A stretch of 64,000 bases of DNA, from the IMG/VR virus record IMGVR_UViG_3300024358_000010; one strand, written 5' to 3'. Position numbers and translations under genes: made by a program. This DNA comes from a virus. This document shows, in pieces, positions 11,762 through 49,584 of the stretch (the stretch's first letter is position 1; every line of letters starts with the position of its first letter). The notes below the pieces were generated by a model that worked only from the letters and a program-made list of their open reading frames with translations, was not told the origin of the DNA and made no database searches.

Positions 11762-12082
11762 TTATTTACCTTTCGCTTTTTTGCCCTGAATATAATGCGC
11801 AACGCCGGAAAGATTCTGCGCCGCCTCGGTGACCTGCGCCTTTAGCCAGTCAGGGGAGTCTTCGGAGGCTTTCATATGCTCCCTGATTTCTTGGACGTGG
11901 TGGACAATCTGTTCAAGATCAGAGAACATCATTTCTGACCCTTCTTCTTTGGCCATCTCGTTAACGCCTTCTCCACCTTTAATTGGGTTGGATGGCGATG
12001 GGACGATGGAAACATCTTCTTTAGACATTTCGTTTTTAACTAGCGACCATTGACCATTTTGGGATTTAATTAGCTTTTCCAT
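11762..12082 (-). CDS. Small internal-head-like protein with NGQW motif
   Basis: MEKLIKSQNGQWSLVK; helical module ...SPDWLKAQVTEAAQNLSGVAHY. Confidence 0.6.
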   Translation of the reverse strand: MEKLIKSQNGQWSLVKNEMSKEDVSIVPSPSNPIKGGEGVNEMAKEEGSEMMFSDLEQIVHHVQEIREHMKASEDSPDWLKAQVTEAAQNLSGVAHYIQGKKAKGK

Positions 12083-17908: not shown

Positions 17909-19102
17909 TTATACTTTGGGGTAGAGAGAACGTAGATAGTTTAAAACCTCAGCTGATGTTCCAGAAAAATGAGATTTGGCGACCGTAGATCTGTGGCGCT
18001 TTACGGCCTTCGCTATCTCGTCGCGGTCTGGGACCCCGCCGCGACTCGCTATTCTCTCGCAGATCGTGTCTAACGATTCATCTATCGCGATAAGTTCGCA
18101 TGGCCAAACTTGGCTGTATCTAGAGAATATAGTCGACGCCTTTCTAAATGGATCATAAAGTACTGGTTTGTCTGGGCATTGACTCGCGAGCTGCATTACC
18201 TTCAGGAGGTGCTGTTCCTTGGGCACCTTGTCAAAGGACACGTAGGAATAATGGTCTGAGAGCTGATTGCAGACCCATGATTTTCCGCTGCCAGAAGGCC
18301 CGCACACGATAATCAACCTGACTGGTGCGCTGTAGTTCGCGCGCATCCTTGCTATCCATTCATCGAACTGCGCCTCGGTGTTTTCGCGTCGACCGTACTC
18401 GTCATGAAACTCTTTATGATGTGCGTGGCATAGCGTGACGCCATTGCTTACGTCAAATCTACGCTCGACGCACCAGTGGAAGCCGTCTTTATGATGAACG
18501 GTTAAGTTGCTTTTACGCTTAACTATGCAGGCGGGCGCTGTGCACCTATTTTTATCGCGCTGTAAAACAGCGATCTCAAAAGCTTTATATTCTGGTGAGC
18601 TTCGTTCTTTGCGCTGCCCCTCAACAGCCCATCCATCAAAATCTTCAACCTCAATACTACGAACAGTGCACGAAGCCTTTATCGCTCTTCGTAAAACTTC
18701 TTCTTTGGGGGCATTCTGATACCAGACCTTAGTCGCTTGAGATAGTTTTCGTTTGGCGGATTTAGTGTGCTTCCGACCTTTAAAGGGAGACTCCATCCCT
18801 TGTTTAGACCAGTGACTTTCACTCATCTTCCTTTTAGATTCTTCTGAGACAAACTTACTTTGGTTTCGCTTTGCCTTGATCATTTCTGGTCGGTTGTGGT
18901 GACACTTATAGCACAGCGCGTTTTTGCGCGACGCGCGCAATGTGATTACTCGCTCGACGCCGCAGGATGGGCAATTATCGATCACCTTTAGTTTCTTCTT
19001 GGAGATTTTGTTGGCGGATGCAAACTCAGCGTTCGTGCGGCGGCGGACTGACGGATCGATGTCGTATCCGAATACTTCTTTTGTACGTTCACGATTTAGC
19101 AT
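17909..19102 (-). CDS. HNH endonuclease (NUMOD3-like) fused to a C-terminal P-loop kinase domain
   Basis: FKGRKHTKSAKRKLS; RDKNRC...VHHKDG...NGVTLCHAHHKEFH; IIVCGPSGSGKS. Confidence 0.75.
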   Translation of the reverse strand: MLNRERTKEVFGYDIDPSVRRRTNAEFASANKISKKKLKVIDNCPSCGVERVITLRASRKNALCYKCHHNRPEMIKAKRNQSKFVSEESKRKMSESHWSKQGMESPFKGRKHTKSAKRKLSQATKVWYQNAPKEEVLRRAIKASCTVRSIEVEDFDGWAVEGQRKERSSPEYKAFEIAVLQRDKNRCTAPACIVKRKSNLTVHHKDGFHWCVERRFDVSNGVTLCHAHHKEFHDEYGRRENTEAQFDEWIARMRANYSAPVRLIIVCGPSGSGKSWVCNQLSDHYSYVSFDKVPKEQHLLKVMQLASQCPDKPVLYDPFRKASTIFSRYSQVWPCELIAIDESLDTICERIASRGGVPDRDEIAKAVKRHRSTVAKSHFSGTSAEVLNYLRSLYPKV

Positions 19103-19259: not shown

Positions 19260-20714
19260 TTACTTGCCAGCGTTCTTCATAACACCTTGGAAGCGAGGTG
19301 CGTAAACAAATAGCGCTCCGTACATGAGCAAAAGGAACTCTAAAGCCGTAGTCACGACGGCCAGGTTCATTTTTGCGAGAGGGGCAAGTTGCTTGAACTT
19401 CATCGACTCAGAGCTGAGGTCCAGCAAGAAAGCTTCGCCAAGTCCTGGGCGCTTCTTACCGGCGTCGACGATCGCGGAGATCCCGAGGCGGTAGTTGCCG
19501 ATGAACTGAGCGGTCGTAGCTGCTCCACCGTTGGTGGTACGGTACAGCTTGAAGTACTTCACGCTGGAGGGGACGGCGCCCGTGATCGCGATGGTGACGC
19601 TTTGGCCAGCGGTGGCGGTAACAGCGGAAGTGGTGAGAACTGGGGCAGACTCACCAAAGTCATTGCACAGCGTCAAGGCGTAGTGGTACGTACCGGCGGC
19701 GAGGTCGGAGCCTGCGCCAGCGGCAGTTCCAGCGATGCTGAGACCAGCAACGCCAGGAGCATTGGCGTTCACGGCAGAGGCGCGAACCTGCTGACGAGGA
19801 CGGAGGAAGAGGTTTGGCTTGAGGTCGATCGCGCCAGCGGTCGTGGTCACTTTCGACACGTCGTAGCCGACAGTTTGACCGCTGAGACCTGGCTCAGAGC
19901 GGAACTGAGGATAGAACTGACGAACGAAAGCGGAGATCACGATTGGCTCAGCGTGGAACTGAGTAGGCGAACCGAAGTTCTCAAGAGCTTTAACAGCGAG
20001 GGTCTCGATGTCGTCTTGAGCGAGGGTTGCACCGGCGAGGTCAAGAACGATCGAGGAGGACTCAGCGCCCCAACCTTGGAAGTCCTTGGAGATGAATTGG
20101 CTGTCGGTGTCACCTTTGAGGATCTGCTGGAGCAGACCAGACATCGCGATGGTGTTGACCGGAAGGTCAGCAGTCGCGCCGGTTTGTGCACCGGTGGCGT
20201 CGGTGAAGTGCGCGTTACCCCAGTAGAGTTCGCGCTCGACGTTTTTCAGAAGGTCCATAGTTCCTTCTTTTGCTTGCTGAGCAACGACGTCGCCCACAGA
20301 GGTGCGGACGAGGGTCATCTGGTGGCTCACCTTACGACGCTTACTGAAGAAGGCGATCCTTTGACCGTCACGTACGTACGTGGAGTCTTCTTCTTGGCCA
20401 GCGCCACCTTCACCGATGTAAGGCGAAGCGTCAGAGCCGTAACCGACGAGACGGTTGTACTGCTCAAACAGGTTGTAGGCTTTGTCGATGCTGAGGGCAG
20501 GCCACAGCTTCAGGTTTTTCATATCGAAGGTCACGACTTTAAGGGTCGATTCCAGCGATTCCGTTTGGATCACGCCACCGTAGGTGAGGTCGGTCGGGCG
20601 ACCAGCGTAGCCGTAGCCAGCGCTGAGAGCCTTGTTGAGGTTTTCGACTTCAGCCTGGGAGACGAGACCTTGCTCCAGACCTTGCATGATTTGATTAAGT
20701 GCGTCTTGATACAT
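19260..20714 (-). CDS. Major capsid protein, SPO1/Twort (Herelleviridae)-like type
   Basis: K-ALSAGYG...GGVIQTESLE...EQYNRLVGYG...ERELYWGN; C-terminal Ig-like insert; LAPLAKMNLA...MYGALFVYAP; strong codon bias and a terminator. Confidence 0.85.
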   Translation of the reverse strand: MYQDALNQIMQGLEQGLVSQAEVENLNKALSAGYGYAGRPTDLTYGGVIQTESLESTLKVVTFDMKNLKLWPALSIDKAYNLFEQYNRLVGYGSDASPYIGEGGAGQEEDSTYVRDGQRIAFFSKRRKVSHQMTLVRTSVGDVVAQQAKEGTMDLLKNVERELYWGNAHFTDATGAQTGATADLPVNTIAMSGLLQQILKGDTDSQFISKDFQGWGAESSSIVLDLAGATLAQDDIETLAVKALENFGSPTQFHAEPIVISAFVRQFYPQFRSEPGLSGQTVGYDVSKVTTTAGAIDLKPNLFLRPRQQVRASAVNANAPGVAGLSIAGTAAGAGSDLAAGTYHYALTLCNDFGESAPVLTTSAVTATAGQSVTIAITGAVPSSVKYFKLYRTTNGGAATTAQFIGNYRLGISAIVDAGKKRPGLGEAFLLDLSSESMKFKQLAPLAKMNLAVVTTALEFLLLMYGALFVYAPRFQGVMKNAGK

Positions 20715-23664: not shown

Positions 23665-24561
23665 TCACTTAGATAAGAAGAACTTAGTCAACGTGTCAAA
23701 TGGAAAGCTCTTGTTGCATGATCGGCACTTTGTCTGGTGCGCCATGTAGACCTGCTCCTTGCCGCAGTTGGGGCAATCTATATATCTGAATGATCGACCT
23801 TGGTCTAAAGATTCAGTCTGAAGCACAGATCCACCGGCTCTAAGATTTGGCGTCTCTGCCCCACCGTAGCCGGCAGTGAGGGCTTTATCTAACGACTCGG
23901 GCGAATTATTGTTTTTTTTTAAAGCGCTGACGGTCTCGTGTATCTTCTCGACGTTCTCGCGGATCTTGGCGATCGAGGTTCTTTGAGAAAGATCGATCAA
24001 GGCCGGAACATTGATCACAGCGTGCGGCGCGTAGGATTTGATGAGGTCGATCTCTTCGGCGGTTGGTGCAGACTTGGCGAGATCAAGGCCTTCGACCAAA
24101 GTATTTGAATTTGCTGGCGTAAATGTGAGCGCTAGCCCCCTAATCTTGGTTCTTGCTAGAACTCTTGGATCTTTCTTTCCTCTTTCTAAGATGCCGCCTT
24201 CTACTGAGCATTTTAGTTTGAGAGGAGAGTCGGTGCGGAATTGGTGCTTCAGGATCGCGGCTGCAGCCTTAGCGGAGCGATGATCTTCGTCGTCATAAAG
24301 CGTACCGGCAACATAAATATAGGGCGATTTAACTTTGTTCCAATAATATCGATGCCTATCATTCTCGCAGTCTTCTGGGCCGAAAATCTTCTTTGCTTCA
24401 GTTATTCGACCAACGACATCTGGCAGTTTGTTGCTATGGTTGTCGTTGACGATTCCGCGACCCGCCAATAGGTCAGAAATATCAGCACCTTGGATGTCTA
24501 ATATCTCTGACTGCGTATCCCGAAGCGCGTTCGTCGCACAGGAATCAAATTTTGTGGCCAT
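23665..24561 (-). CDS. Prohead (capsid maturation) protease with C-terminal zinc ribbon
   Basis: DTQSEILD, NDNHS, CSVEGG, LALTFTPAN motifs; CPNC...CRSC at the C-terminus. Confidence 0.75.
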   Translation of the reverse strand: MATKFDSCATNALRDTQSEILDIQGADISDLLAGRGIVNDNHSNKLPDVVGRITEAKKIFGPEDCENDRHRYYWNKVKSPYIYVAGTLYDDEDHRSAKAAAAILKHQFRTDSPLKLKCSVEGGILERGKKDPRVLARTKIRGLALTFTPANSNTLVEGLDLAKSAPTAEEIDLIKSYAPHAVINVPALIDLSQRTSIAKIRENVEKIHETVSALKKNNNSPESLDKALTAGYGGAETPNLRAGGSVLQTESLDQGRSFRYIDCPNCGKEQVYMAHQTKCRSCNKSFPFDTLTKFFLSK

Positions 24562-27552: not shown

Positions 27553-29490
27553 TTATTCTTTTTCGGTATCTGCGGCAACGTTGATTGGGTTTCTTGTCAT
27601 CTTGCCTTCAACGTTTGAGGCGCGAGTCGCGCCAAATTCTTTGGCAGTCTCTTGCAATTGCTGCACGGGCGATTGGCCTGCCTTTACTGCGGCCTCAGCT
27701 GCTGCTTGTTTTCTACCTTCGGTATCGTGATCAACCTGCTGGCGCTGAAGATCTTGCTCGTGTTCCATTTGCTGCTGCTGCATTGCCATCTGTTGTTGCT
27801 GCTGATCTTTTGCTTCTTTCTGAGCCTGTTTAGTCATAAGCATATTTTGCCACTGCAGGAACATTGGATCGCCAGGAAGATATTGGAGTTCTTGTCGTTG
27901 AGTCGCGCCTGCATCGCCTAAGAAGACTTCTCGCTGCTCGCCTTTGGTCATCATCTTGTCGACCAGTCCCCAAAATGCTTGATTAAGCGGCAAATTCGCA
28001 ATCGGATGGTCAATAGGTTTACGATCTTCATTCTTAAGCAGATCGTTCATAGAAGAAAACACGGTCATCTGCGCTTGACGAAGCGAGATATCGGTTTGCG
28101 CCGTGTCGTCTGTGTACCCTACGAACTTAAATTTATATTTAGATGCGAGCTCTTTATCTAAAGCAGGGACTACGTCTTGGTTGATCAGATCTTCAATAAA
28201 GTAAAGAATTGGCAGCAAACCTCTCTCGCGAGAGTACGTGATCTTGAATTGTCCAGATTCTTTAGCTTGAGATGCGGCACGACCGTTGGCGGTTGTAAGA
28301 TAATCTAAACCTACTTCGATGGGGTCGATCTGAAACTGAGCACAGATGGATCGCATGACGTGCGAATTGAAGTTGATGTACTCCATCTCGCGTGCAGACC
28401 CTGACATTGGTATCCACTGGACATCATCCAGCCCTGATACAATCGGTGTGCGCCAAGCGTTATTCGAGCCCGAAATAGTATTGTAGAACTGACGACGGAA
28501 AGACGCCAGAGTGTTTTGAGTAACTGTTCCTTTGAGATGCAGGATCCCTCTAGCCGCATATCCGTGCGTAAAGTAGTTTGCATTGTAGGATTCAACGTTG
28601 AGATGGTTTGTGATCATGATCACGGCTTGCTCGACCATCGAGATCGCGTAGCCGTTGGAGTCGGCAAAGTTCTTTGGGTTGAAGAGTTTGAAGACCATGT
28701 CTTCATCGCCAAACACGTTTACGACGCGCATGTCCATGGTCTGCTGAACGTACTTTAGGTACTCCATGTCAGGAGTATTGATCTGACCGTCACCCCTTGG
28801 GTCATTGTCAGAGCGCTTTTTGTGGTAAAGCTCCAGCGCGACTTTTGCCTGATTCTCAACCGCATCCTTGGAGACGTTTGGGTTGACACGGTAAACAGTC
28901 TCTGCGGGAAGAGGGCGAAAGCGATGGAGAGAACCTTTGCGAGTAAGCACCTTCTCTACGGCGATATGGCCAAAGGTTAGTGCGTCCCAGGTGATCAACT
29001 TTACGAACTCACCGAACAGCATCTCCTCGCCGCGGGGCGTTGCGTCGGTACGACCACAGTGATAAATATAGTCTTCTAGCATCCGGATGTTATCGATATC
29101 TTCTTGGGTAACTGGTTCATTTTGGTTGGCCTTAACAAACCGGTACCCCATGTCATACTTCTTCTCCTGAGGACGAGAGAAGCGCAGAACTGTATCGCAA
29201 CGAATCTGCAAAATTGCATTTACTAGCCAATCTCGCATAGAGATTTCTCTAAGGGTGCGGTTGGCTATTCTAGAGATTTTTGATTTAGAAAGAAAGTAAT
29301 TATGAGCAGCGTGATCGTAATACGGATCGGTAAGTATAGCTTTGCTGCCAACGAGCTGACCCTGATCTTGAGCTTCATTTTTAGGCTGAGAAGAGTCGGA
29401 TAGACGGTCGGCTTCAGACTTAGTTAAGTCCTCGATATCTTTACGAAGAGAATCAGTAACTGCTTTTTTAATATCTTCAATCCAAGACAT
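27553..29490 (-). CDS. Portal protein
   Basis: FRPLPAETV, YNANYFTHG...GILHL, AWRTPIV, ICAQFQIDPIEVG, GLLPILYFIEDLIN; follows TerL. Confidence 0.85.
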   Translation of the reverse strand: MSWIEDIKKAVTDSLRKDIEDLTKSEADRLSDSSQPKNEAQDQGQLVGSKAILTDPYYDHAAHNYFLSKSKISRIANRTLREISMRDWLVNAILQIRCDTVLRFSRPQEKKYDMGYRFVKANQNEPVTQEDIDNIRMLEDYIYHCGRTDATPRGEEMLFGEFVKLITWDALTFGHIAVEKVLTRKGSLHRFRPLPAETVYRVNPNVSKDAVENQAKVALELYHKKRSDNDPRGDGQINTPDMEYLKYVQQTMDMRVVNVFGDEDMVFKLFNPKNFADSNGYAISMVEQAVIMITNHLNVESYNANYFTHGYAARGILHLKGTVTQNTLASFRRQFYNTISGSNNAWRTPIVSGLDDVQWIPMSGSAREMEYINFNSHVMRSICAQFQIDPIEVGLDYLTTANGRAASQAKESGQFKITYSRERGLLPILYFIEDLINQDVVPALDKELASKYKFKFVGYTDDTAQTDISLRQAQMTVFSSMNDLLKNEDRKPIDHPIANLPLNQAFWGLVDKMMTKGEQREVFLGDAGATQRQELQYLPGDPMFLQWQNMLMTKQAQKEAKDQQQQQMAMQQQQMEHEQDLQRQQVDHDTEGRKQAAAEAAVKAGQSPVQQLQETAKEFGATRASNVEGKMTRNPINVAADTEKE

Positions 29491-29531
29491 CTTGGTCTCC
29501 AAGCTGACGGTAAGACAACCATATTATACGA

Positions 29532-31058
29532 TCAAAAGGTCCATATAAAACCGCCGTCCGACCCTTGATCTTCGTTATCCTCTATATCAGACAGCCTTCC
29601 TATTTTACCCATCTTATCCAGGTTAACTTCCGGATTAAACGGAATGTTGTTTACCTTAGCGTACTCTTCAGGTGTGGGCGGTTTAAAGAAGCTGCCGGTA
29701 GAATCAACTAATTTAGCCATGTCTACGTCTAAGCCAGCCGAAGAAAGGATGACAGCTGACTTGCTGAATAAATTAGTCATCGCATAGCGCAAAGCGTCAA
29801 TCCAGTGATCGTGCTCTGTATCAGGATCATCCGTGATTTGACCTGATGCATCTACTTTGTAATGGTAGAGCTGGAACTCCCTTATCAAGGGCTGACAAGT
29901 TTCTTGTGCAAAAAATATCTTTGGCTCCCCGGTTCCTGGGACTTTTAACCATTTCTTTATGACCTGGATGCCAGTGTTTACTTGGCCCTTGTCAGTGTTA
30001 GTTGATGTGGGAAGACCGAGCTTTCTCATCTCGACTGCGTCACCCGGATCGGCTTGATCTGGGAAGTAGAGCTGAACCCGATAAGCCTGGTGCCACTTAT
30101 TCTTGACGTGGTGCATCCAGGCAGGTCGAGATATGTACGTCATACCGTCGCATCTGACGACGTAGATGTTTTCCTTAGAGTCTACGAAAAAAGTTACCAA
30201 AGTATGAGGGTTAGACCATCCCCAGTCGATACCCGAGTATGCTGGCAAACCCATTGCTAAACATTTCTTAACAAAGATATCGTGATTGCACTCGCCAGGA
30301 AATTCCTTGCCGGTAAGAGTGAGCCACATCTGATTCCATGTCCTGACGTGCGTACGCTCATCAAATTCCTTAAACACAATTCCCTCAACTGATGGTTTAA
30401 GATTCATCAGCTGTGACATTGCCCAATCAGGACCTTCGGAAAGTATCTTCTGGGCAAGTTCGTCAATCGACTTGAGCATCGGCGATGTGGATGTTTGATT
30501 TTTGGCGTCACCTAAGCAGATTGGCGCAAGAGGGCACTTGTGGCAACCAGAATACATCTCGTACGGCGCGTAGTCTTTTTTCTTCTGCTCGCTGAGTTTA
30601 TTGTATTCAGACGGAAGACGCATGTCGAATGAATTTTGGTCGATATAGTATTCTTGCTTAGTCGTACCGGATCTAGAGTCTGGGCAGCGCTCAGTAAACT
30701 CGAACGCGGTCCAGCGGCGAACATGTCTCCCCTGCTTCTCGGCATTCTCGATGGCTTGATTCATTAGCCCGTATCGAGATTTTCTAGTTGAGATACCCAC
30801 TCTTAGCGGCTTCTTGCCCCGCTTGGAGTCGAGCATACCAGATATCTCTTTGTATGCCTTTAATCCTTCGCCAGAAACTGTGTCGATTTCATCGACCACA
30901 ACCAGCGGTACGTGAGGTCCGTTGCAGTTGTGATTTATAGTGCCATCGATCGTAACAAATGAATTAGACATCGGATTTGTCGGATCCGAATTAGAACGAA
31001 CCTCAAGTTTCGCTATTTGTTTGACACCGGTTCGCTCGAGCTTTTTAATTTTAGCCAT
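29532..31058 (-). CDS. terL: Terminase large subunit, C-terminal part, preceded by split-intein C fragment (IntC)
   Basis: Residues 1-44 end ...GTINHN, then C. Extein has Walker B VVVDE, ISTR motif, GIDWG nuclease motif and DHWIDALRYA. Confidence 0.9.
   Translation of the reverse strand: MAKIKKLERTGVKQIAKLEVRSNSDPTNPMSNSFVTIDGTINHNCNGPHVPLVVVDEIDTVSGEGLKAYKEISGMLDSKRGKKPLRVGISTRKSRYGLMNQAIENAEKQGRHVRRWTAFEFTERCPDSRSGTTKQEYYIDQNSFDMRLPSEYNKLSEQKKKDYAPYEMYSGCHKCPLAPICLGDAKNQTSTSPMLKSIDELAQKILSEGPDWAMSQLMNLKPSVEGIVFKEFDERTHVRTWNQMWLTLTGKEFPGECNHDIFVKKCLAMGLPAYSGIDWGWSNPHTLVTFFVDSKENIYVVRCDGMTYISRPAWMHHVKNKWHQAYRVQLYFPDQADPGDAVEMRKLGLPTSTNTDKGQVNTGIQVIKKWLKVPGTGEPKIFFAQETCQPLIREFQLYHYKVDASGQITDDPDTEHDHWIDALRYAMTNLFSKSAVILSSAGLDVDMAKLVDSTGSFFKPPTPEEYAKVNNIPFNPEVNLDKMGKIGRLSDIEDNEDQGSDGGFIWTF
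30927..31058 (-). other. Split intein C-terminal fragment (IntC, 44 aa)
   Basis: MAKIKKLERTGVKQIAKLEV...SFVTIDGTINHN followed by Cys+1. Confidence 0.85.
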
Positions 31059-31125
31059 ATATCACCTGGGTATATAGATCCCATGTCTAGTATCTATATA
31101 CTCAAAATGATAAGTATTTATAGTT

Positions 31126-32025
31126 TTATAGACCGTGATGATGTTTAAAATGTGCAACACCGCGATCTACGACCGCGTCTTCGTGTGCTTTCAATTTACG
31201 TAGATCGCCACTCAGAGCATCTTCATACGTACTAGAAACCTTGTCGTTAAGCGCCTCGTGGCGAGCTGTTGTCGCGTCGTCTTTAGGTTTAGCGTTGCTA
31301 TTATCGTACTCGTAATAAAGAATATCACCGGGGGATGTAGCAGAAACAGTCTTGTGATGACCGTATGCGCCCAGATTCAAAGCTTGAACATCGCCAACTA
31401 GATGGGGTTTTAGTGCCAAATTGTCGTGATCGTGAAAAACAGTAGGACCATGTTTGCCCTCATGATAAGGATCGATATTTGCTCCTATTGCTCTACTTAA
31501 ACCCTTTACAGCCTCAATGCCGTGATGATCATGCACATCTTTTAAATTTTTAACAGAATCATCCAGATGACGATCAAAGGCATTGCGTAGATCTTCATGA
31601 CTAAATCTTAGTCCACCATGATGGGGCATATCTGAGGCTTTAAAAGCATCTGCAGCCTTATTTTGCAAGTAACTAAGGTGCCCTAAATCAATGGATCCAG
31701 GGCTAGCATTGTTTACTAAATCTCTTATAGCACCAGAATGCTGCTGCAACGCCCGCGGAGACTTAGCATCAAGAGCGTCGTGATAATCAGCAAACATTTT
31801 ATTAAGTTTAGCATTGTATTGAGTTTTGTTAGGTGCAGAATTCGCATCCACACAGGTGTAGTGGTGCATTTTGTCGTTTCTCATAGAGCCACCGCATATA
31901 CATGCGTTTTGAGAAATATGAGGTGCTTTTTCCCATATGGCTTTACTTAAAAGCTGCCATTGACCGTTTGATTTTACGAGCAATTCTTCTTTGTGCGTTT
32001 TTAACGACTTGATTAAATTATTCAT
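31126..32025 (-). CDS. His-rich hypothetical protein with NGQW / LxKA head-type leader, located inside the split terL locus
   Basis: MNNLIKSLKTHKEELLVKSNGQWQLLSKA. Confidence 0.65.
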   Translation of the reverse strand: MNNLIKSLKTHKEELLVKSNGQWQLLSKAIWEKAPHISQNACICGGSMRNDKMHHYTCVDANSAPNKTQYNAKLNKMFADYHDALDAKSPRALQQHSGAIRDLVNNASPGSIDLGHLSYLQNKAADAFKASDMPHHGGLRFSHEDLRNAFDRHLDDSVKNLKDVHDHHGIEAVKGLSRAIGANIDPYHEGKHGPTVFHDHDNLALKPHLVGDVQALNLGAYGHHKTVSATSPGDILYYEYDNSNAKPKDDATTARHEALNDKVSSTYEDALSGDLRKLKAHEDAVVDRGVAHFKHHHGL

Positions 32026-32557
32026 ATCGATCTCTTGGTGGCTTTGTTTTCAAATTTAAAAAATTAAAGAAATCGTTTTCGCTTTTAAATGTCAACTTTT
32101 CATTGGTTGATTTAATCAATATAAAAGCTGGATTTTTCCACGACATTCCTTGACTTTCAAGGCTGTTTCTAATTCTACCATTATGGGCAGCCGACCCGGT
32201 TGCAAAAACTAAAACATTTCCAAGGTTTTCATCAGTGTACGGAAATATATCTAATACTATTATCTTTCTTATATTAAAAAATTTAATCTTTTTAAGATAC
32301 TGTCTGCTAAGAGTTGCATTGTGATTTCTCATAGGGTTCAGGAACCAGCCCATGCTTTTCATTTTAGAATCAAGATCTTGCATAAGATGTGCTGGAATTA
32401 CGAGATCGATATCGCCGCAAATAAATTTAGATCTCCTATACGAACCTGCGATTAGGTATCCGTTTATGTTAAGTTTAAAAGTTATAAACTTTACAATAAG
32501 ATATACGATAAATCTTGGTAATTTTAATTGCAAATTATTTGGCACCGATATAGCCAT
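32018..32557 (-). CDS. Minimal DNA polymerase X-family nucleotidyltransferase (palm and thumb only)
   Basis: IAGSYRR...GDIDLVI, third Asp in LDIF, FATGSAAHN, ENDFFNFLNL..KPPRDR; 179 aa. Confidence 0.8.
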   Translation of the reverse strand: MAISVPNNLQLKLPRFIVYLIVKFITFKLNINGYLIAGSYRRSKFICGDIDLVIPAHLMQDLDSKMKSMGWFLNPMRNHNATLSRQYLKKIKFFNIRKIIVLDIFPYTDENLGNVLVFATGSAAHNGRIRNSLESQGMSWKNPAFILIKSTNEKLTFKSENDFFNFLNLKTKPPRDRYE

Positions 32558-32582
32558 AATGCACTCTCTAATATTAATAATA

Positions 32583-33530
32583 TTAAATCGTTATAACGTC
32601 ATCGATATCAGTAAGATGCTGCAATTCTACCCAACCTCGTTGAGTCCAAACCTTATGGTCAAGCGTTCCTTCGATTATTCTTCCATCTTCTAACTCTACT
32701 CTGACACATTCCGCATCTTCAAGTTGATTGTCTATTACTTCAACAAAACCAATAGTATTTTTAATTAAATCCCCTGGTTTAAAATCCGCTAATATTTTTG
32801 GCACACCATTGCCATCGATTGACATAGTACAAGAAGTTAAACAGGCTTTTAATGTGCATGGAATCACTTCAAGTGTGACCTTCTCACCCGTAACATTAAA
32901 TACCGATTTTTCCATCGTAAATTTTTCAAGAATACGGTCGGCTTCTTGTGTTTTAGGTGGCAAAATTAACGGTTTAATTCTGTCGGACATCAGAAACTTT
33001 TGCTGATACTCGTAGCATCGTTTTGCCTGTGATAGAATCGCACCCACATGAACAACATCGCGCTGATCGTGCAAAAGTATTAGAAGTTCGGCGATAGCCA
33101 TGCCAAGTGTTTTTCCAGAGCCCCTACCGGCAACGTATAGCAACTCTTGCACATTTTGCGGATTATCGTTGTTAACGCAAATATTATAAGCTTCCCATAT
33201 CGCGTGAAAAGGCGTCGTATCCGCATAGCGGGAAACCTTGCAATCTGGCAGCTGGAGGTTAAAAAAGTATTTAATATAGTTCTTTAGATCTTTCTCTGTT
33301 CGGCACGGCGTAAGAAAGATCTTTTCGAGCTGCGCCATTGTCAGGTGTGCGGCTCTCTCAGACATTCTCTGAGAAGCTTGCTGCTGCTTTGCGACCTTAG
33401 TTAAGGCCGTCTGCTCGGCGCGCTTCTTAGGAAGCTCGATAAACTTCTTATAATGGTTGCCGCAGTAACCTTTTGCCTTGATCGGCTTACCGCACCCGGT
33501 GACTGAGCAAAACTTAGACTCGTCACTCAT
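32583..33530 (-). CDS. terL: Terminase large subunit, N-terminal part, fused to split-intein N fragment (IntN)
   Basis: Walker A AGRGSGKT and ILSQA motif; residues 230-315 are IntN. Confidence 0.9.
   Translation of the reverse strand: MSDESKFCSVTGCGKPIKAKGYCGNHYKKFIELPKKRAEQTALTKVAKQQQASQRMSERAAHLTMAQLEKIFLTPCRTEKDLKNYIKYFFNLQLPDCKVSRYADTTPFHAIWEAYNICVNNDNPQNVQELLYVAGRGSGKTLGMAIAELLILLHDQRDVVHVGAILSQAKRCYEYQQKFLMSDRIKPLILPPKTQEADRILEKFTMEKSVFNVTGEKVTLEVIPCTLKACLTSCTMSIDGNGVPKILADFKPGDLIKNTIGFVEVIDNQLEDAECVRVELEDGRIIEGTLDHKVWTQRGWVELQHLTDIDDVITI
32586..32843 (-). other. Split intein N-terminal fragment (IntN, 86 aa)
   Basis: Block A CLTSCTMS, FKPGD, block B IEGTLDHKVWTQRGWVELQHL; acidic C-terminus. 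Confidence 0.88.
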
Positions 33531-34140
33531 CTTCTGGGTCCTGGACTAATTGGGCCAAGAGAACAGACTCGTCGGCTGGTTCTGGTTTGGGTAGGGCTTT
33601 AGGTTTGCTTGATTTAGACAAAAGTTTAGGTTGATCAGTCTCTGCAGGAGCAGAAAGGGCTCTAACTGAGTCTGCGACTTTCGCCAGCATCTCTATTACC
33701 TGCTGGTATTCTTTTAAACTTTTGATTCTCATCTGAGGAGGAGGCGCTTTAGAAGGATCTTGGAGATACTTGCGCATCTCCTCCATGTTCTCTGTGGTAG
33801 AGACAGACACCATGTCTGTAAGAAACTCAACCTGCTCGACGGTGGATTTAACTATGCGGGCCCGAATCCTGTCATATATTGAGTTGGCTAACTTTTCACG
33901 ATCTTTAACCCACCCGTTTAAGGCAGCCGTCAGCGAGATTTTTCCCAAAGAATATTGGGGAAATTTCCTGCTTAGATCTTCTAACGAATAGCCAAGCAGG
34001 AAAAGTTCGTAAACGGGCATAGCCTCTTGCTTGCCCATGGCGCCTGCGGTCTTATGCTGACGAAGATACTTTTCGGCCTCGCGGACCTGATCGAAACTAA
34101 GTCCGTAGCGTTCTTCAGCGTTCAGTCTCTTTTTTAGCAA
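33523..34140 (-). CDS. Putative terminase small subunit
   Basis: HTH-like ELFLLGYSLEDLSRKF...GWVKDR then helical body; overlaps the terL start; TTG start with GGAG RBS. Confidence 0.55.
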   Translation of the reverse strand: MLKKRLNAEERYGLSFDQVREAEKYLRQHKTAGAMGKQEAMPVYELFLLGYSLEDLSRKFPQYSLGKISLTAALNGWVKDREKLANSIYDRIRARIVKSTVEQVEFLTDMVSVSTTENMEEMRKYLQDPSKAPPPQMRIKSLKEYQQVIEMLAKVADSVRALSAPAETDQPKLLSKSSKPKALPKPEPADESVLLAQLVQDPEDE

Positions 34141-34522
34141 GCGCTTTCTCCCATATAGGATGGGTAGAGATGTTGTTTATCATCTGCTGCAGACGTAACA
34201 TCTCGATCATCTTATACTTGGAAACTTGCTCTTTTGTAAACCCTATAACAAGCAAGATCATAACTGATCTTTCCAGTTCGGTAAAATTATCTAATAATTC
34301 CAACATCTCGGACGTTGGTGGTGACTGTAAGTAATTAATAAGATTACTTATTATGATGTCGTTGGCGTCATTCCTGCTCTTAATCTCGATGAATCTAGAC
34401 GACAGGTCGAAGTAGGGATCTTCCAAATAGGCTACCCACAGATCTTGTCTCTCGTCCTCATCTTGGGACAGAGTCTCGATCTTTCTTTGAATCATCATTA
34501 AATGTGGGTCCTTGATCCTCAT
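34115..34522 (-). CDS. Small sigma-factor-like protein
   Basis: DERQDLWVAYLE (region 2-like) and LDNFTELERSVMILLVIGFTKEQVS (region 4-like). Confidence 0.45.
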   Translation of the reverse strand: MRIKDPHLMMIQRKIETLSQDEDERQDLWVAYLEDPYFDLSSRFIEIKSRNDANDIIISNLINYLQSPPTSEMLELLDNFTELERSVMILLVIGFTKEQVSKYKMIEMLRLQQMINNISTHPIWEKALAKKETER

Positions 34523-34904
34523 ACTCCGAGCTTTCTTTTAACTCAAGATCGACACTCCAAGTCGGTCCGCAGTAGGTTTTTACAAAACCGTTCAATATCT
34601 TTAAAAATTCTAAATTACCATGGCGCTTAAGAAGTCGCTTAAGCTTCCACATACCGAGTATGGAGTCGGTGTTTTTAAGCGCAATATATCTATTATAATC
34701 TTTTAGTAAAGAAAGATCAGCATAGAGTGTGTATTTTATGAGCTTAGTGTTTGAATCTACAGACAATTCTACTGCTGTAATACCTTTATTTATTATGGCC
34801 CCATAAAGGTACAAACTGTCTTTAGTTTGATCAGTAAACAGACCGTTATTGAGGAGCCACCTGTGCTGATCTAGCAGCTCGTGTACGTTGGCGTTGGTGT
34901 TCAT
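34458..34904 (-). CDS. Hypothetical protein
   Basis: 148 aa, ATGA-coupled to the upstream gene. Confidence 0.6.
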   Translation of the reverse strand: MNTNANVHELLDQHRWLLNNGLFTDQTKDSLYLYGAIINKGITAVELSVDSNTKLIKYTLYADLSLLKDYNRYIALKNTDSILGMWKLKRLLKRHGNLEFLKILNGFVKTYCGPTWSVDLELKESSEYEDQGPTFNDDSKKDRDSVPR

Positions 34905-35878
34905 TGCTGCTCCGTGTACCTTTTAAGTATACTCTTAAGTTCATATTTATCAATCGCGCCTGAGTAAATTTTGTCTACGTACTGTTCAGCCATACTGTAA
35001 ATAGTAGGCGCAGATATTTGCGTGCGATTTGACTTAATCGTGTCTGTGAATTCAGTTTTAAAGACAACTTGAGTTCTTCGTTTTAAATCTAAAATCTTAT
35101 CGGACTCCAGTAGAGCTTTGATCTCAGCGCGTGGACCTATTAGTTTTACTACCCAACGATCTGTTTCATTTAGCTCTAAAGAAGTAGATTCAGCTAAATC
35201 AAAATCTAAGGTACGCCACATAGGGAACGGTGACTCAATAAACGTCCAGGACATAGAATCTGTATCTAAGAAGGAGATTCCTTTGACCTGGTTTGCATCA
35301 GAAGCCGTGAGACTCGTCGGAGTTCCGGGATATACAACATGTCCCTCATTGAGCGACTGTTTCTTGTGGATATGTCCAGAGACCACAGTGTATCCCTGAA
35401 CCTGAACAAGTGGTATACCATCGTCTGCAAATTTGAACCCATAGTCAGCGCCTATAAATGTGTTGTGAGTTACAGCTATATCCGTTTTAATATCTGGCCA
35501 ATCTAGAGGATTGGGTAGATAAGGGATGTAGGTAGCACCGTCTAATTGAATTATTGAATCAACTACTGTTACGCCCTTAACATCCCTAAAAACCTCTAAA
35601 GCGTGATATTTGCTGCAGTTAGGCTTCCACATATCGTGGTTACCGAGCAACATAACCATCGGTATCTTCATATCAACCACACGAAGGATATGAGAGTTAA
35701 CCAGAGACAAGACTTCAGCACGTATAACGGCGTGATCGTCAAAGGTGTCGCCGAGATTGACGATCAGATCTGGCTTATGCTCCTCTGCCGCACTTTCAAT
35801 CCAAGAAAGAAGCTTCTCACCCTCGGAGAGATGGGTATGACGGATATGTGGGTCACCTATGAACATAATCTTAGACAC
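34901..35878 (-). CDS. sbcD: SbcD/Mre11-like nuclease (metallophosphoesterase)
   Basis: GDPH, LGDTFD, GNHD, THN, SGHIH, YPGT motifs. Confidence 0.8.
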   Translation of the reverse strand: MSKIMFIGDPHIRHTHLSEGEKLLSWIESAAEEHKPDLIVNLGDTFDDHAVIRAEVLSLVNSHILRVVDMKIPMVMLLGNHDMWKPNCSKYHALEVFRDVKGVTVVDSIIQLDGATYIPYLPNPLDWPDIKTDIAVTHNTFIGADYGFKFADDGIPLVQVQGYTVVSGHIHKKQSLNEGHVVYPGTPTSLTASDANQVKGISFLDTDSMSWTFIESPFPMWRTLDFDLAESTSLELNETDRWVVKLIGPRAEIKALLESDKILDLKRRTQVVFKTEFTDTIKSNRTQISAPTIYSMAEQYVDKIYSGAIDKYELKSILKRYTEQQ

Positions 35879-36023: not shown

Positions 36024-36189
36024 GATCCGTCGCCTTTCTAGTTGCGGCTATAATAACAGCATCATATATGCCGCTATTAATCTGGCGCGGATTGCCAACA
36101 GATAAGCGCAACTTACACGCCACGTCCATAACATTCATTATGAGCGCAGCGTTCAGCCAAAACAAGGTTTCCCTGTCGTGAGGGCTCAC
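36004..36189 (-). CDS. Small hypothetical protein
   Basis: GTGA-coupled to the recA stop. Confidence 0.4.
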   Translation of the reverse strand: MSPHDRETLFWLNAALIMNVMDVACKLRLSVGNPRQINSGIYDAVIIAATRKATDRGSDST

Positions 36190-37286
36190 AGAGCTTCCTC
36201 AAGCCCGTCATCAACAAAACCAAGAGAATCTGTCTCCACTTTTACGTCCTGATACTCATAACAGGCACTAAGGATGCGGTTTTGGAGATCTTTGTCTGCC
36301 ACAACCATGTTCTTGATATTCTGCTCGCCGCGTACTGGTGCGTCATTGCCGAAACACCACATTTGTGGATTTTCGCGACCGGTTTCAGGATTAACTGGAT
36401 GCCTGATTACGCCTAGCGCTTTTGCCAGTTCGAATATCTCGCCGCCGGTGTCGATGACGCCAAGATCATAGTGAAAAGTAAACTCGGCCTGGCGGGCGGG
36501 TGCGCCCATGCGATTCTTCTTGACCTTAACACGAACTTTATGGCCAACCTGTGCAGCAGCGCCGGTAATTGTCTCACCGTGCTCAATCACGCCTTTCTTT
36601 GAGTCGACGCGGGTGATCTCAAGCATCAAATCCGCAGCATGCTTGAGGGCGTGACCCTCAGAGATAACGTATGGGTTGCGGAGAGCCTTCATTGGATCCA
36701 TTTGCGCAGTTACCTGCTGTATAAAGAAAGTCAACAACTTATGCTCTGCGATTACAGGTATGACGAGTTTAAGAGCGCTGCCGAGATACTGGGAACCGCT
36801 GCCGCCCATAATCTGATCAGTGGTTTGCTTGCGGACGTCTTTTGGATATCTGATTGCCTTGATTGAATCAATCACAATGGCCTTAATTGGTGCGCCATCT
36901 TGAATCAATTCAAGCATCTCGCCGCCAATATAATCAAAGATTTTGATCGGATCATTTGATTTTCTGACTACGAGACGATCCGGATCACCGCCCAACTTGG
37001 TGAACATCTGCGCATTAAACGAGTATTCGGCGTCAAACCAGATAGCAAGCGCCTCTGGGTCTCGTCTCTGCATCTCAATTAGACCCATCATAGCAAGCAT
37101 AGACTTACCGGATGACTCTGGTCCGTAAAGAATATTCACCTTGCTAGGAAGAAAGCCTCCCTGGCAGGTTGCCCAGTTTAAAGATGGGCTCCAAGATGGT
37201 ATTGGATCAGGTCTTTGCATCTTTAGTTTAGATGCGGCGACTCCAAGATCTGATGTTAATTTAGACATCCATTTATTAGTACTCAT
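36186..37286 (-). CDS. recA: RecA/UvsX-like recombinase
   Basis: GPESSGKS, FDAEYS, IVIDSI, GHALKH, VKVKKNR. Confidence 0.9.
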   Translation of the reverse strand: MSTNKWMSKLTSDLGVAASKLKMQRPDPIPSWSPSLNWATCQGGFLPSKVNILYGPESSGKSMLAMMGLIEMQRRDPEALAIWFDAEYSFNAQMFTKLGGDPDRLVVRKSNDPIKIFDYIGGEMLELIQDGAPIKAIVIDSIKAIRYPKDVRKQTTDQIMGGSGSQYLGSALKLVIPVIAEHKLLTFFIQQVTAQMDPMKALRNPYVISEGHALKHAADLMLEITRVDSKKGVIEHGETITGAAAQVGHKVRVKVKKNRMGAPARQAEFTFHYDLGVIDTGGEIFELAKALGVIRHPVNPETGRENPQMWCFGNDAPVRGEQNIKNMVVADKDLQNRILSACYEYQDVKVETDSLGFVDDGLEEAL

Positions 37287-46737: not shown

Positions 46738-47373
46738 TCAATCATATAAAAATTGCTTTTTATTGACCTTTTTAAAAGTCACGTCTGGCGGTACTGAAAC
46801 CGTGCATTTAAATGTTTTACAATTAAATCTAAGATACGAAGCGTACATCGCTTGCGCAACAGCGTCCACAACGTCAAAGCGAAAGTGTATGGGTTTGCCG
46901 GTGTTTTCTGAGATGCTGTGATTAGGGAACCGCACGCCAAAACGTTCCCAGAGGGCTTGAACGATCATGAGCTTTTTAGCTGGACCAGATCCCCACTTTT
47001 GTTTTTGCAATTTAGTCGGGGTCGATCTGCCAGCGGCAAAAACCTTCCAGTTAGAGATATTCAAAACCTCATAGTGCAGATTTTGCTCTCTGGCCCACAT
47101 ATGGATAACGGTTCGGTACGCAGGATTGACATTAGAACCTGATGCAAATCTAGACCCGAAGAAGTAGTCTTCGACGGCGATCTCATCAGCCTGAACGCGA
47201 TTCTGAAGCTCTGAGATGCGCCTCTTGAGATCGAGACACCAATCCCCTATGTATTGAGATGAAGTGTCGACGTCGATGAAACCGTATTCCACGATTTCAC
47301 AGCAATCGCCTACAATGCGAGCTACCGCGTACCCGGAAGAGCCTCCGGGATCTAGAGCAAGAATAGTTTTCAA
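46738..47373 (-). CDS. ruvC: RuvC-like Holliday junction resolvase
   Basis: ILALDPG, IAVEDY, NWKVFAAG, DVVDAVAQA. Confidence 0.75.
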   Translation of the reverse strand: MKTILALDPGGSSGYAVARIVGDCCEIVEYGFIDVDTSSQYIGDWCLDLKRRISELQNRVQADEIAVEDYFFGSRFASGSNVNPAYRTVIHMWAREQNLHYEVLNISNWKVFAAGRSTPTKLQKQKWGSGPAKKLMIVQALWERFGVRFPNHSISENTGKPIHFRFDVVDAVAQAMYASYLRFNCKTFKCTVSVPPDVTFKKVNKKQFLYD

Positions 47374-47383
47374 AGTGGCCTCG

Positions 47384-47833
47384 TTATTCTTTAACTATCG
47401 ACCACTGGCCATTCTTCTCGAGTTTTAACTTTTCTTTAACCACGGGGACAAGATGAAAGCCAGCGCCTTCTAATCTTTTTACCCCGCCGTGCTTGACGTT
47501 AATCTCTTCCATGCTCACCGGCTTATCGGTGATCCGGTAGCCGTTTTGAACGATGTGGTAGTGGTAAGATTCACCCTCAGATTTCGTGGTGAAAGCGAGA
47601 GGATTAGATGACGCTTTGACCTGCAGGGTTGCCTGTCCCATAGCAAAATCTTTTGCATCTGGGGTTTTGACCTGCTGCGCAACCTTGATAGGGTTCTTTT
47701 TGGACTTCGGCGCCAAGGACGGAGCTTTCGGGGGTTTTGGCGGCTCAATGGACGGCATCCTCAGGCTTGGCATCAAGTTGGCCTTCAGCAGATCTTTGAT
47801 ATCATTTAGTTTTTTAACAAAACTTTCCATCAT
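47384..47833 (-). CDS. Basic Pro-rich protein with head-type LLKA leader and C-terminal NGQW motif
   Basis: KLNDIKDLLKA at the start; EKLKLEKNGQWSIVKE at the end. Confidence 0.6.
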   Translation of the reverse strand: MMESFVKKLNDIKDLLKANLMPSLRMPSIEPPKPPKAPSLAPKSKKNPIKVAQQVKTPDAKDFAMGQATLQVKASSNPLAFTTKSEGESYHYHIVQNGYRITDKPVSMEEINVKHGGVKRLEGAGFHLVPVVKEKLKLEKNGQWSIVKE

Positions 47834-49584
47834 GAAACTACTGATACGCCGTTCTTCTTGGTGACTGTAATGGACTGATCAAATAAAGCTTTTGCTTCGG
47901 ACGCATGGTCTATTACTACTATACACCGTTTTACAGCCATCTCACGTAAGAAGTCGATAACCCTGGTGCGATTAGAGGCGTCTAGGTGATCAAAAGGTTC
48001 ATCTAATATCAACGGGTTAAGTTGCGCCCCCGTGTATCTGGCCACGACATCTGCTATGGCGAAATCTATGGCCAAAGATAAACATCTCCTTTCGCCACCA
48101 GATAGCGAACCTACTGGCCGTTTGACACCGTCTACCGTAAGCGAATCAGACATCTTAGATGTTACCGTGCCAGACTTATTCTCCTTGAAGGAGAGAAGTT
48201 CGTAAGACGAGTTTGGCCAGACAAACTGGACAATTTCTTGAATCTTATCGTTGAGCGCCTGGATAACAGAGTCCATAACATAAGCTGGTGCACCGGTTGG
48301 TGAAAGTATTGCAGATGCGGCCTCAAGACGAACAATCTCATCTATAATCGAATCTAAATTTGACTTATTTTCAGATAGTTGATCTTGTAACTGTTTGATT
48401 TTGATTAATAAATCACTTTGCTGATCGCGCGTTTTAAGCAGATTTTTGTGCTCTATTTCTTTCTCCCTGCGGAAAGCTTTTAACTCCAACAGGCGAGATT
48501 GGGCGGTCTCATAGTCAAACATGGATTCGCGCATCTTGTTTTTAAGAGCAGAAATGGCATCTAATACGGATCTCTCTTTTGAGACCTCTGTCTCCAAGGC
48601 GATTATTGATGATGTTAGGGCGTCGATCTTGGCGGACATCGATTCGCGGTGCGCTTTTATCTTGAGAGCGAAAGATTGCCTATCGTGCTTGACAAAGCCA
48701 GATGGCAGAATATTTAATTCAGTTGAGCAATTTGGGCACTCGCCATCGCACGAGTCTTCCGGTTCTTTAGTATTCTTCAGCTCAGACAGTTGTTGTCGAT
48801 AAGCTTTCAGTTTGCCATTATTAAGCGATATGTCTCTGAGTTTAGAATTTAATTTTTCTATTAATTCAGATAGTTTATCTGTGTCGTCTGGCGGTTGTAT
48901 GTTAGACAGTTTTTGTATCTTGACGTCGACGTCGCCGATGGCTCGTTCAAGAGCAGATATCTCTTTGTGGAGAGATTTTGAATCGACAAGCGAATCTTGA
49001 TAAGCAGATAACTTACCCGCAAAAGTAGATATCGTGCTTGAGATGGTTGCTTTATCTGACAGCAACCGTTTCATATCTAGTTCGATCTTTTTTCTTGATT
49101 CAGCAAAACCATCAGCTCGCATAAGCTTCAGGATGAGGTCCTTCCTACCGGAGTCATTAAGATCGATAAACCTTATCCCAAGCCCTTGGGCAAAGTACTG
49201 AGCCAGTATGAACTGATCATAGTCCAACGGGATCAGTCTTTCATATTCAGACTCAGTAATCTCAACGTCGTTGACAGCAGCATAGAAGGATTTCGGACGG
49301 TTGCGCTCAACTCTGAGAATTCGGTTTGCTGAGAGTTCAATGTCCACTGTAACTTTAGTAGTTCTAGCGTTCTGACGAACAAAATCAGTGATAGACACTC
49401 CGCGGGGATATTGTCCGTAGAGCCCCCACGATAAGGCATGAAATATTGCCGATTTACCGGCCCCATTGGCCGATTCTGTGTCATAGTTCCACCCATCAAC
49501 TAACAAAAGACCAGTTTCTGAAAATGAGACAGATGCGCTCTCTATCGAGAGAACGTTCTCGATGGTCACTGATTTAATATACAT
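47830..49584 (-). CDS. sbcC: SbcC/Rad50-like ATPase
   Basis: NGAGKS Walker A, CPNC zinc hook, LSGGE signature, LILDEPFD, VIDH. Confidence 0.85.
   Translation of the reverse strand: MYIKSVTIENVLSIESASVSFSETGLLLVDGWNYDTESANGAGKSAIFHALSWGLYGQYPRGVSITDFVRQNARTTKVTVDIELSANRILRVERNRPKSFYAAVNDVEITESEYERLIPLDYDQFILAQYFAQGLGIRFIDLNDSGRKDLILKLMRADGFAESRKKIELDMKRLLSDKATISSTISTFAGKLSAYQDSLVDSKSLHKEISALERAIGDVDVKIQKLSNIQPPDDTDKLSELIEKLNSKLRDISLNNGKLKAYRQQLSELKNTKEPEDSCDGECPNCSTELNILPSGFVKHDRQSFALKIKAHRESMSAKIDALTSSIIALETEVSKERSVLDAISALKNKMRESMFDYETAQSRLLELKAFRREKEIEHKNLLKTRDQQSDLLIKIKQLQDQLSENKSNLDSIIDEIVRLEAASAILSPTGAPAYVMDSVIQALNDKIQEIVQFVWPNSSYELLSFKENKSGTVTSKMSDSLTVDGVKRPVGSLSGGERRCLSLAIDFAIADVVARYTGAQLNPLILDEPFDHLDASNRTRVIDFLREMAVKRCIVVIDHASEAKALFDQSITVTKKNGVSVVS

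Follow-up and report, generated by a model that had tools for sequence, protein, structure and literature searches.

In the 64,000-nt stretch of DNA analysed here, from the viral record IMGVR_UViG_3300024358_000010 (hereafter the window; all coordinates refer to its whole length), the gene of the large terminase subunit (terL) is, judging from its sequence, a fractured gene broken at a split intein, and the gap between the intein halves holds the genes of a minimal family X DNA polymerase (PolX) and of a 299-amino-acid (aa) protein (p299) with an NGQW peptide and an LxKA motif. Fractured genes are usually described as a split intein combined with a homing endonuclease, and the original prediction that this gap contains a PolX and a tagged protein with no recognisable homing endonuclease was confirmed by Pfam, PHROGs, and fold searches. 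The explanation that we favour as a whole, and consider probable, is that a split-intein cargo slot captured a PolX-p299 module serving as a late gap-filling polymerase and its partner. Under this explanation, the cassette would have been brought in by recombination between co-infecting relatives, replacing one or more endonuclease genes; PolX would be an active gap-filling polymerase of the type of African swine fever virus (ASFV) Pol X, made late along with TerL, and p299 would serve it as an accessory subunit or direct it to its target. With LxKA behind it, the NGQW peptide would resemble an address tag joined to a prohead-protease site, and the pair may be loaded into heads.

A terminase gene broken at a split intein

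Related loci were collected from IMG/VR using the TerL C-half as query, which gave 45 loci that were mapped with all six window proteins, while a search of GenBank phage DNA with positions 29000-34200 gave no match. The minus strand carries every gene between 27.5 and 37 kb, and the features of the broken gene and its gap (IntN and IntC, N- and C-terminal intein halves; ORF, open reading frame) are the following:

32583-33530, minus strand: ORF of TerL-N and IntN, 315 aa
32844-33530, minus strand: TerL N-extein, aa 1-229, with Walker A GRGSGKT and an N-terminal Cys/His zinc-ribbon-like motif
32586-32843, minus strand: IntN, 86 aa, with Cys1 and block B TLDH (stop codon at 32583-32585)
32018-32557, minus strand: minimal family X DNA polymerase (PolX), 179 aa, palm and thumb only
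31126-32025, minus strand: p299, 299 aa, PolX-associated helical protein
31070-31101, minus strand: hairpin found by RNA folding, with a 10-bp core stem GUAUAUAGAU/AUCUAUAUAC
30927-31058, minus strand: IntC, 44 aa, ending ...TINHN (+1 Cys codon at 30924-30926)
29532-31058, minus strand: ORF of IntC and TerL-C, 508 aa
29532-30926, minus strand: TerL C-extein, with Walker B LVVVDE and an RNaseH-like nuclease domain (Pfam Terminase_3C, PHROG terminase large subunit)

TerL is unbroken at the intein site of the window in 24 of the 45 related loci. The empty-site allele of locus L007, a TerL of 693 aa, was aligned to both window ORFs; the N-extein aligns with it end to end, and the window has 130 extra residues. 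At the junction the window reads ...PCTLKA, then the two intein halves (CLTSC...DVITI-stop and MAKIK...TINHN), and then CNGPHVPLVVVDE, compared with ...PCTMRA followed directly by LNGPHVPLVVVDE in L007. The intein is thus exactly absent from L007 at the predicted junctions, where the protein reads ...RA/LNGPH and the +1 residue is Leu. The residues needed for splicing are in place in the window, i.e., Cys1 (CLTSC...), block B TLDH, the terminal His-Asn (...TINHN), and a +1 Cys, and the insertion point lies immediately before Walker B. IntC was found in all split alleles. No Hint domain was detected in the window intein by a Pfam scan, and a phmmer search of IntN against the PDB gave 16 matches, of which 11 were intein chains (among them the Pab PolC, gp41-1, NrdJ-1, and RecA inteins), all of them weak (E 0.1-1.1). 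Given that TerL is essential and that both halves are conserved in 14 split loci, trans-splicing would have to rebuild the protein.

In several relatives (L009:676-1902 and L036:8805-9929, also L005, L010, L016, and L037-43), terL is interrupted in frame by inteins that contain LAGLIDADG at two more sites, one beside Walker A (about aa 140) and one at about aa 268 of the C-half, and the terL of some relatives contains three inteins, two contiguous and one split.

Exchangeable contents of the intein gap

When the genes inserted in related terL loci were tabulated for the comparison set of 14 split relatives, the content of the gap proved exchangeable:

L001: 306-aa HNH/EndoVII-like gene
L002, L004, L005, and L006: 550-567-aa homing endonuclease, phrog_559/3339 (E 1e-33 to 1e-45)
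L016 and L036-43: both endonucleases (HNH and homing endonuclease)
L018: 247-aa trypsin-like protease with a lipoprotein-like leader
L014/15: PolX and p292

Because the gaps of relatives hold an HNH gene, a homing endonuclease gene, both of these, a protease gene, or the PolX pair, the reading of the split-intein gap as a cargo slot is supported at the sequence level. The earlier proposal of a landing site for exchangeable cargo agrees with these contents, with the breakpoints against L001, and with the presence of the pair in two TerL lineages. The protease of the distant relative (L018:7251-7994), another non-endonuclease cargo, matches Pfam Trypsin_2 and has a hydrophobic leader ending in LVVGC.

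The closest described systems are the fractured genes of Dassa et al. 2009 (PMC2677866), a set that includes one terminase locus and in which, as in the window, an enzyme gene is broken at a split intein with its halves in order at one locus. The gaps reported there contain GIY-YIG and Vsr-like endonucleases or are empty. The relatives of the window resemble that system in having free-standing endonuclease genes in the gap, and a hairpin before the downstream gene is a further likeness. Unlike that system, the window gap has no recognisable endonuclease and holds PolX and p299 instead, and another relative has a trypsin-like protease there; the endonucleases of the relatives are also of other kinds (HNH/EndoVII-like and phrog_559/3339 types).

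The comparison with L001, which carries the HNH gene, delimits the exchanged segment. The 88% nucleotide homology between both sequences ends at 32586 (IntN stop) and resumes at 31057 (IntC start), and the intein halves are 58-77% identical in 60-nt windows vs. 85-98% for the exteins. Cross-over may therefore have taken place inside the intein halves, the exchange tracts reaching into their DNA. A maximum likelihood tree built on the TerL exteins places the window as sister of L001 (support 100/99), its closest relative with 97% extein identity, and L014/15, which have the PolX pair, as sister of loci L036-43 with HNH and homing endonuclease genes (support 95/96), i.e., the pair fills the terL gap in two separate TerL lineages. 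Between these two lineages (window vs. L014), identity drops from 83% in TerL-C to only 55% in PolX, and the PolX of the window is similarly distant (54% identity) from that of L057, in which the pair is located elsewhere. The higher AT content of the PolX and IntN DNA, already noticed in the original prediction, was borne out by both composition profiles: GC is 0.29-0.38 over 32000-33050 vs. 0.42-0.50 in the flanks, and GC content at third codon positions (GC3) is 0.289 in PolX, 0.330 in p299, and 0.244 in IntN vs. 0.49-0.52 in the exteins. The cassettes of low-GC relatives match their own genomes in composition. The placement in the tree, the mismatch between PolX and TerL identities, and GC3 together suggest that the module existed beforehand and was captured by the slot two or more times, the capture in the window probably being recent.

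It is distinctly unlikely, in our estimate, that the PolX-p299 pair is ancestral in the gap or at the pre-split site and was later displaced by homing endonucleases in most relatives. Such a history would be in keeping with the occupation of the gap by the pair in two TerL lineages and with locus L072, where an unsplit terL directly follows a p299 homolog, which may reflect an old association with this gene. However, a GC3 of 0.29-0.33 where the exteins have about 0.5 speaks for a recent acquisition from a foreign source in the window, the cassette shows a history other than that of terL (PolX is as close to L057 as to L014, although the TerL of the latter is closer), and the nearest relative has an HNH gene instead. 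With capture as the preferred reading, an intein slot with non-nuclease cargo would turn over between near-identical terminases, and therefore a break in an essential gene could act as an exchange site for accessory genes, beyond being a scar of endonuclease invasion.

A minimal family X polymerase

PolX was recognised in Pfam by DNA_pol_B_thumb (PF14791, 34.7 bits) and DNA_pol_B_palm (PF14792, 25.5 bits), each with a cut-off of 25 bits, and no Pfam domain beyond palm and thumb was found in its 179 aa (no 8-kDa lyase, helix-hairpin-helix fingers, PHP, or BRCT domain). Its alignment with Pol lambda spans GSYRR, CGDIDLVI, LDIF, and the TGS...N...R thumb motif, with GSYRRSK, D49-I-D51, and D103 of PolX matching GSYRRGK, GDVDVLI, and RLDII of Pol lambda. 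Residues G38, S39, Y40, R42, K44, D49, D51, and D103 are invariant in 7 PolX homologs (34-55% identity), and homologs have lengths of 153-182 aa (by gene call or first ATG). The AlphaFold2 model of PolX (pLDDT 91.7, pTM 0.87) had Pol lambda and Pol beta as top matches in a Foldseek search of the PDB (E 4e-12, TM 0.64-0.76), and a profile built from the seven homologs matched Pol lambda (E 8e-13), Pol beta (E 4e-10), and ASFV Pol X (5hrk, E 2e-9) in the PDB, with profile positions 32-179 collinear with residues 36-177 of the 178-aa ASFV chain. The gene had originally been described as a 179-aa PolX with GSYRR, DxD, and a third Asp, without lyase, fingers, or PHP domains and similar in size to ASFV Pol X, a description that holds both in the domain content and Pol lambda alignment and in the collinearity with 5hrk. 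The ratio dN/dS was set aside since synonymous sites were saturated for most pairs, and the proportions of nonsynonymous (pN) and synonymous (pS) differences were compared instead, giving pN 0.30-0.32 vs. pS 0.71-0.88. Considering that the catalytic residues are invariant, that domains and fold are recognised, and that pN is far below pS, PolX is by these sequence criteria intact and under selection, and the decay that had been raised as a possible objection is not seen.

ASFV Pol X (PDB 5hrk; PMC5330486), a gap-filling repair polymerase, has the same architecture as the phage PolX, with about 175-180 aa, a catalytic palm and C-terminal subdomain only, and the three Asp and GS-x-RR motif in common. 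In contrast to it, PolX is a phage enzyme with low sequence identity, scores higher with Pol lambda, and is always encoded with a p299-family partner, which ASFV lacks. As a viral example of family X, a 2022 review on phage polymerases names only ASFV (PMC8775771). Literature searches, with incomplete coverage, gave no description of a minimal phage PolX, and no match was obtained for PolX by tblastn against GenBank phages. The ESM Atlas contains many clusters of 164-193-aa palm and thumb proteins, mostly from tailed phages, which therefore suggest that the minimal PolX form is common in uncultured phages.

Family X also includes template-independent transferases (terminal deoxynucleotidyl transferase, TdT), which counts for a different reading, in which PolX is a nucleotidyltransferase for untemplated tailing of DNA or RNA ends or for counter-defence, and p299 its specificity factor. 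The lack of the 8-kDa and fingers DNA-binding domains would suit such an enzyme, as would the abundance of minimal PolX in uncultured phages with no described role. We nevertheless find this reading very unlikely, as thumb and palm, GSYRR, and the three Asp match templated enzymes of the Pol beta/lambda type, and ASFV Pol X, which is built alike, fills gaps in DNA repair (PMC5330486).

The partner protein and the two-gene module

Word-indexed homolog searches retrieved only 2 matches for PolX and 1 for p299 (p299 itself), and an exhaustive profile search seeded with the window p299 and its L014 homolog recovered a p299 family of 43 cluster representatives (115-402 aa). Members share an N-terminus of the form MEKLIKSxLGQWKLxK...LxKA, a core with APKGSIDLGHL, INHHxGD, and SLKDIHDxHGG...GANG, and a C-terminus of the form HExAVVxRGxDxFKRHHKL. 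The window p299 has the N-terminal NGQW tag (31957-31968), an LSKA motif, the conserved core, and a CxC...HHxxC knuckle, which is also present in some other members of the family.

No match for p299 was found in Pfam, PHROG, or PDB sequence searches. The AlphaFold2 model (pLDDT 79.6, pTM 0.74) is all-alpha with a small hairpin, and gave only generic helical matches in the fold searches (Foldseek against PDB and BFVD, VIA-wide, Atlas), in which residues 205-299 were barely sampled. The ESM Atlas contained no usable relative of p299, and its own model of the protein was poor. Neither family nor fold searches matched p299 to HNH, GIY-YIG, LAGLIDADG, PD-(D/E)xK, Vsr-like, or EDxHD nucleases, with residues 205-299 barely covered by the fold searches; the cryptic nuclease fold for which this 299-aa protein had been proposed to be searched was accordingly not seen, with the C-terminal third poorly sampled. 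Inspection alone had suggested that p299 might be a divergent PHP, HD, or helix-hairpin-helix domain, an idea that no tool supported and that was set aside. A prediction of the complex of PolX and p299 scored 0.22, compared with a mark of 0.32, and weighs neither way.

Locus searches with a single PolX query found nothing, and the full alignment was too divergent for patterns, hence subsets of it were used. Elsewhere in metagenomic phages, at least 13 contexts have a minimal PolX gene immediately before a p299 homolog (L014/15, L047, L048, L050/51, L052-54, L057, L071, and L074, together with contigs of P0008 and P0012 and the truncated contigs L073 and L049). The position of the module varies: it lies in the terL gap in the window and L014/15, after a homolog of window ORF 25578-26054 in L057, behind the capsid gene and a neighbouring 417-aa ORF without annotation in L050/51, and after a homolog of window ORF 53844-55373 in L054, where two extra p299 paralogs follow behind. 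A whole-record search detected one PolX in the complete 165.8-kb relative G006 and none in the complete 176.5-kb G002 or in four partial relatives, with positive controls detected. By gene order, PolX-p299 is a conserved two-gene module, and it is accessory in view of its presence in one complete genome (G006) and absence from another (G002). In the window, PolX starts 25 nt past the IntN stop, its ORF overlaps that of p299 by 8 nt, and p299 is predicted to be translationally coupled to it; the gap would have captured a pre-existing unit and not two separate genes. Such a module, composed of an ASFV-sized polymerase X and an obligate-looking partner of unmatched fold, appears to be undescribed, and small polymerases with a partner are of interest for repair biology, for the biology of phage genome ends, and as compact enzymes.

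In L054 (L054:7017-9872), p299 paralogs of 261, 247, and 252 aa stand in tandem behind a single PolX, and all three begin with the leader MSFKII..LLKT..NGQW. The 417-aa ORF between the capsid gene and the PolX pair (L050:3728-4981) has an N-terminus that is GIY-YIG-like by eye (YKITNKLNNKVYIGQT) and a C-terminus homologous to the kinase-like part of window ORF 17909-19102.

The sporadic presence of the cassette and its several intergenic positions in related phages recall free-standing endonuclease genes, and it repeatedly fills a slot in which such genes are otherwise found. Together with its foreign composition, the conserved His, Asp, and Arg of p299, and the Cys/His knuckle of some members, this would also suit a selfish homing element in which cassette-free sites are cleaved by p299, as a nuclease whose fold escapes recognition, and PolX is a repair aid or a passenger. 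We rate this reading as unlikely: no nuclease family or fold was matched in any of the searches (Pfam, PHROGs, PDB sequence, Foldseek PDB/BFVD, VIA-wide, Atlas), the p299 model is an all-alpha bundle with few invariant polar residues in the family, and three tandem paralogs after a single PolX, as in L054, would be unusual for a homing nuclease.

The NGQW peptide and a possible route into the head

Of the NGQW/LxKA motif noted on the 299-aa protein from the start, NGQW is real and non-random, with 3 matches of its coding pattern in the window vs. 0.05 expected. Besides p299, two ORFs carry the tag, one of 106 aa (11762-12082) at its N-terminus (site 12047-12058, minus strand) and one of 164 aa (47387-47878) at its very C-terminal end (site 47402-47413, minus strand). 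The 106-aa ORF and the scaffold protein also have the peptide EGVNEMAKE in common. In relatives, the GQWxL pattern exceeds a reversed-pattern control, and many small, unannotated, and unrelated proteins (including those of L061-L070) carry NGQW-x-L-x-K at their N- or C-terminus. No function was found in a PHROG search of 10 NGQW-tagged proteins, and no description of the motif in literature searches of incomplete coverage. Judging from this distribution, these proteins seem to have NGQW in common as a docking or address tag, which may be a beta-hairpin, and the terminal peptide would be a candidate address tag on many proteins of the phage group.

LxKA follows the NGQW tag across the p299 family alignment. 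In the window, the major capsid protein reads ...NLNKA-LSAGYG near its N-terminus and the prohead protease ...SLDKA-LTAGYG near its C-terminus, a shared segment that suggests a common maturation site. Since LxKA precedes L[ST]AGYG in both proteins, it is a plausible maturation site. Over a longer stretch, the N-arm of the capsid protein (NLNKALSAGYGYAGRPTDLTYGGVIQTESLE) is echoed near the C-terminus of the protease (SLDKALTAGYGGAETPNLRAGGSVLQTESLD), the genes lying at 19260-20714 and 23665-24561 (minus strand).

The internal proteins of phage T4 have a capsid targeting sequence that is cleaved by the prohead protease. As in T4, the tag is a short conserved terminal peptide common to several unrelated small proteins, and it is followed by LxKA, the motif that also stands before L[ST]AGYG of the major capsid protein and protease. 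Unlike in T4, the tag (hxxS-x-NGQW-x-L-x-K) is unrelated in sequence, occurs also at C-terminal and internal positions, and is found on one gene beside a RuvC-like gene. The pattern fits a T4-like capsid-targeting scheme without being proof of it.

A bolder version would have PolX-p299 as a head-loaded repair unit. The NGQW peptide would dock p299 in the prohead, with PolX in tow, the prohead protease would trim it at LxKA, and the pair would leave the head together with the DNA and fill gaps in the incoming genome or process its ends, its cassette competing with homing endonucleases for intein gaps and other hot spots. We regard this version as rather doubtful; if it were true, intein gaps would be general exchange sites for useful cargo inside essential genes.

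Expression signals around the cassette

The PolX pair is probably co-transcribed with the late terL operon. The hairpin at 31070-31101 (minus strand) immediately precedes the ribosome-binding site (AGGTGA) of the IntC-terL gene and has a folding energy of -20.5 kcal/mol (z -3.5). In L014, a non-homologous and stronger hairpin stands in the same place (L014:7922-7995, z -6.4), and no hairpin was found at the corresponding place in the endonuclease carriers L001 and L002. Both PolX-pair lineages thus have unrelated strong hairpins between the p299 stop and the IntC-terL start, and the one of L014 pairs with the GGAGAAG ribosome-binding site. In a scan for consensus promoters and terminators, matches were no more frequent than in shuffled sequences.

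Observations that weigh against the favoured explanation

Several points weigh against a captured gap-filling polymerase and its partner. The functions of PolX, p299, and the intein are predicted, and the roles originally suggested for the pair, i.e., PolX repair at packaging, head tagging, and help with mobility, are hypotheses, as is the neutrality proposed for the landing site. No recognisable function is assigned to p299 from its sequence, and near-invariant polar residues in its family are limited to D113, H153, and R288. Among loci whose upstream gene is intact, only L046 deviates, the gene before its p299 homolog being other than PolX. The exact end points of recombination are uncertain, because divergence from L001 is greater in the intein halves than in the exteins, and which of the two replaced the other, the endonuclease or the PolX pair, is read from the tree and composition. 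As the C-terminally NGQW-tagged ORF adjoins the RuvC-like gene, it is equally allowed that the tag serves a DNA-metabolism hub and not the head.

Neighbouring genes

The genes on both sides of the broken terL are the following:

33523-34140, minus strand: putative small terminase gene, 205 aa (by position and conservation beside terL in all related loci)
27553-29502, minus strand: portal protein gene (Pfam Phage_portal, E 7e-17)

The putative small terminase gene is directly upstream of terL, with overlapping ends; it had no family match in Pfam or PHROG and is named from its position only. The TerL C-extein is 27% identical to the terminase of Myxococcus phage Mx1.

The start of TerL (33417-33530, minus strand) carries a Cys/His motif (CSVTGCGKPIKAKGYCGNHY) resembling the N-terminal zinc-binding part of PHROG HNH endonucleases, with a phrog_5351 match to aa 5-38 (E 3e-6). 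A clade of about 60% identity has no such motif, TerL matches there beginning at aa 31-63, and close relatives (about 80% identity and above) have kept it. Recombination and repair genes, all on the minus strand, were found near the packaging module, namely those of a calcineurin-like phosphoesterase (Mre11/SbcD-like, 34901-35878), a RecA-family protein (36186-37286), and the RuvC-like resolvase (46741-47394).

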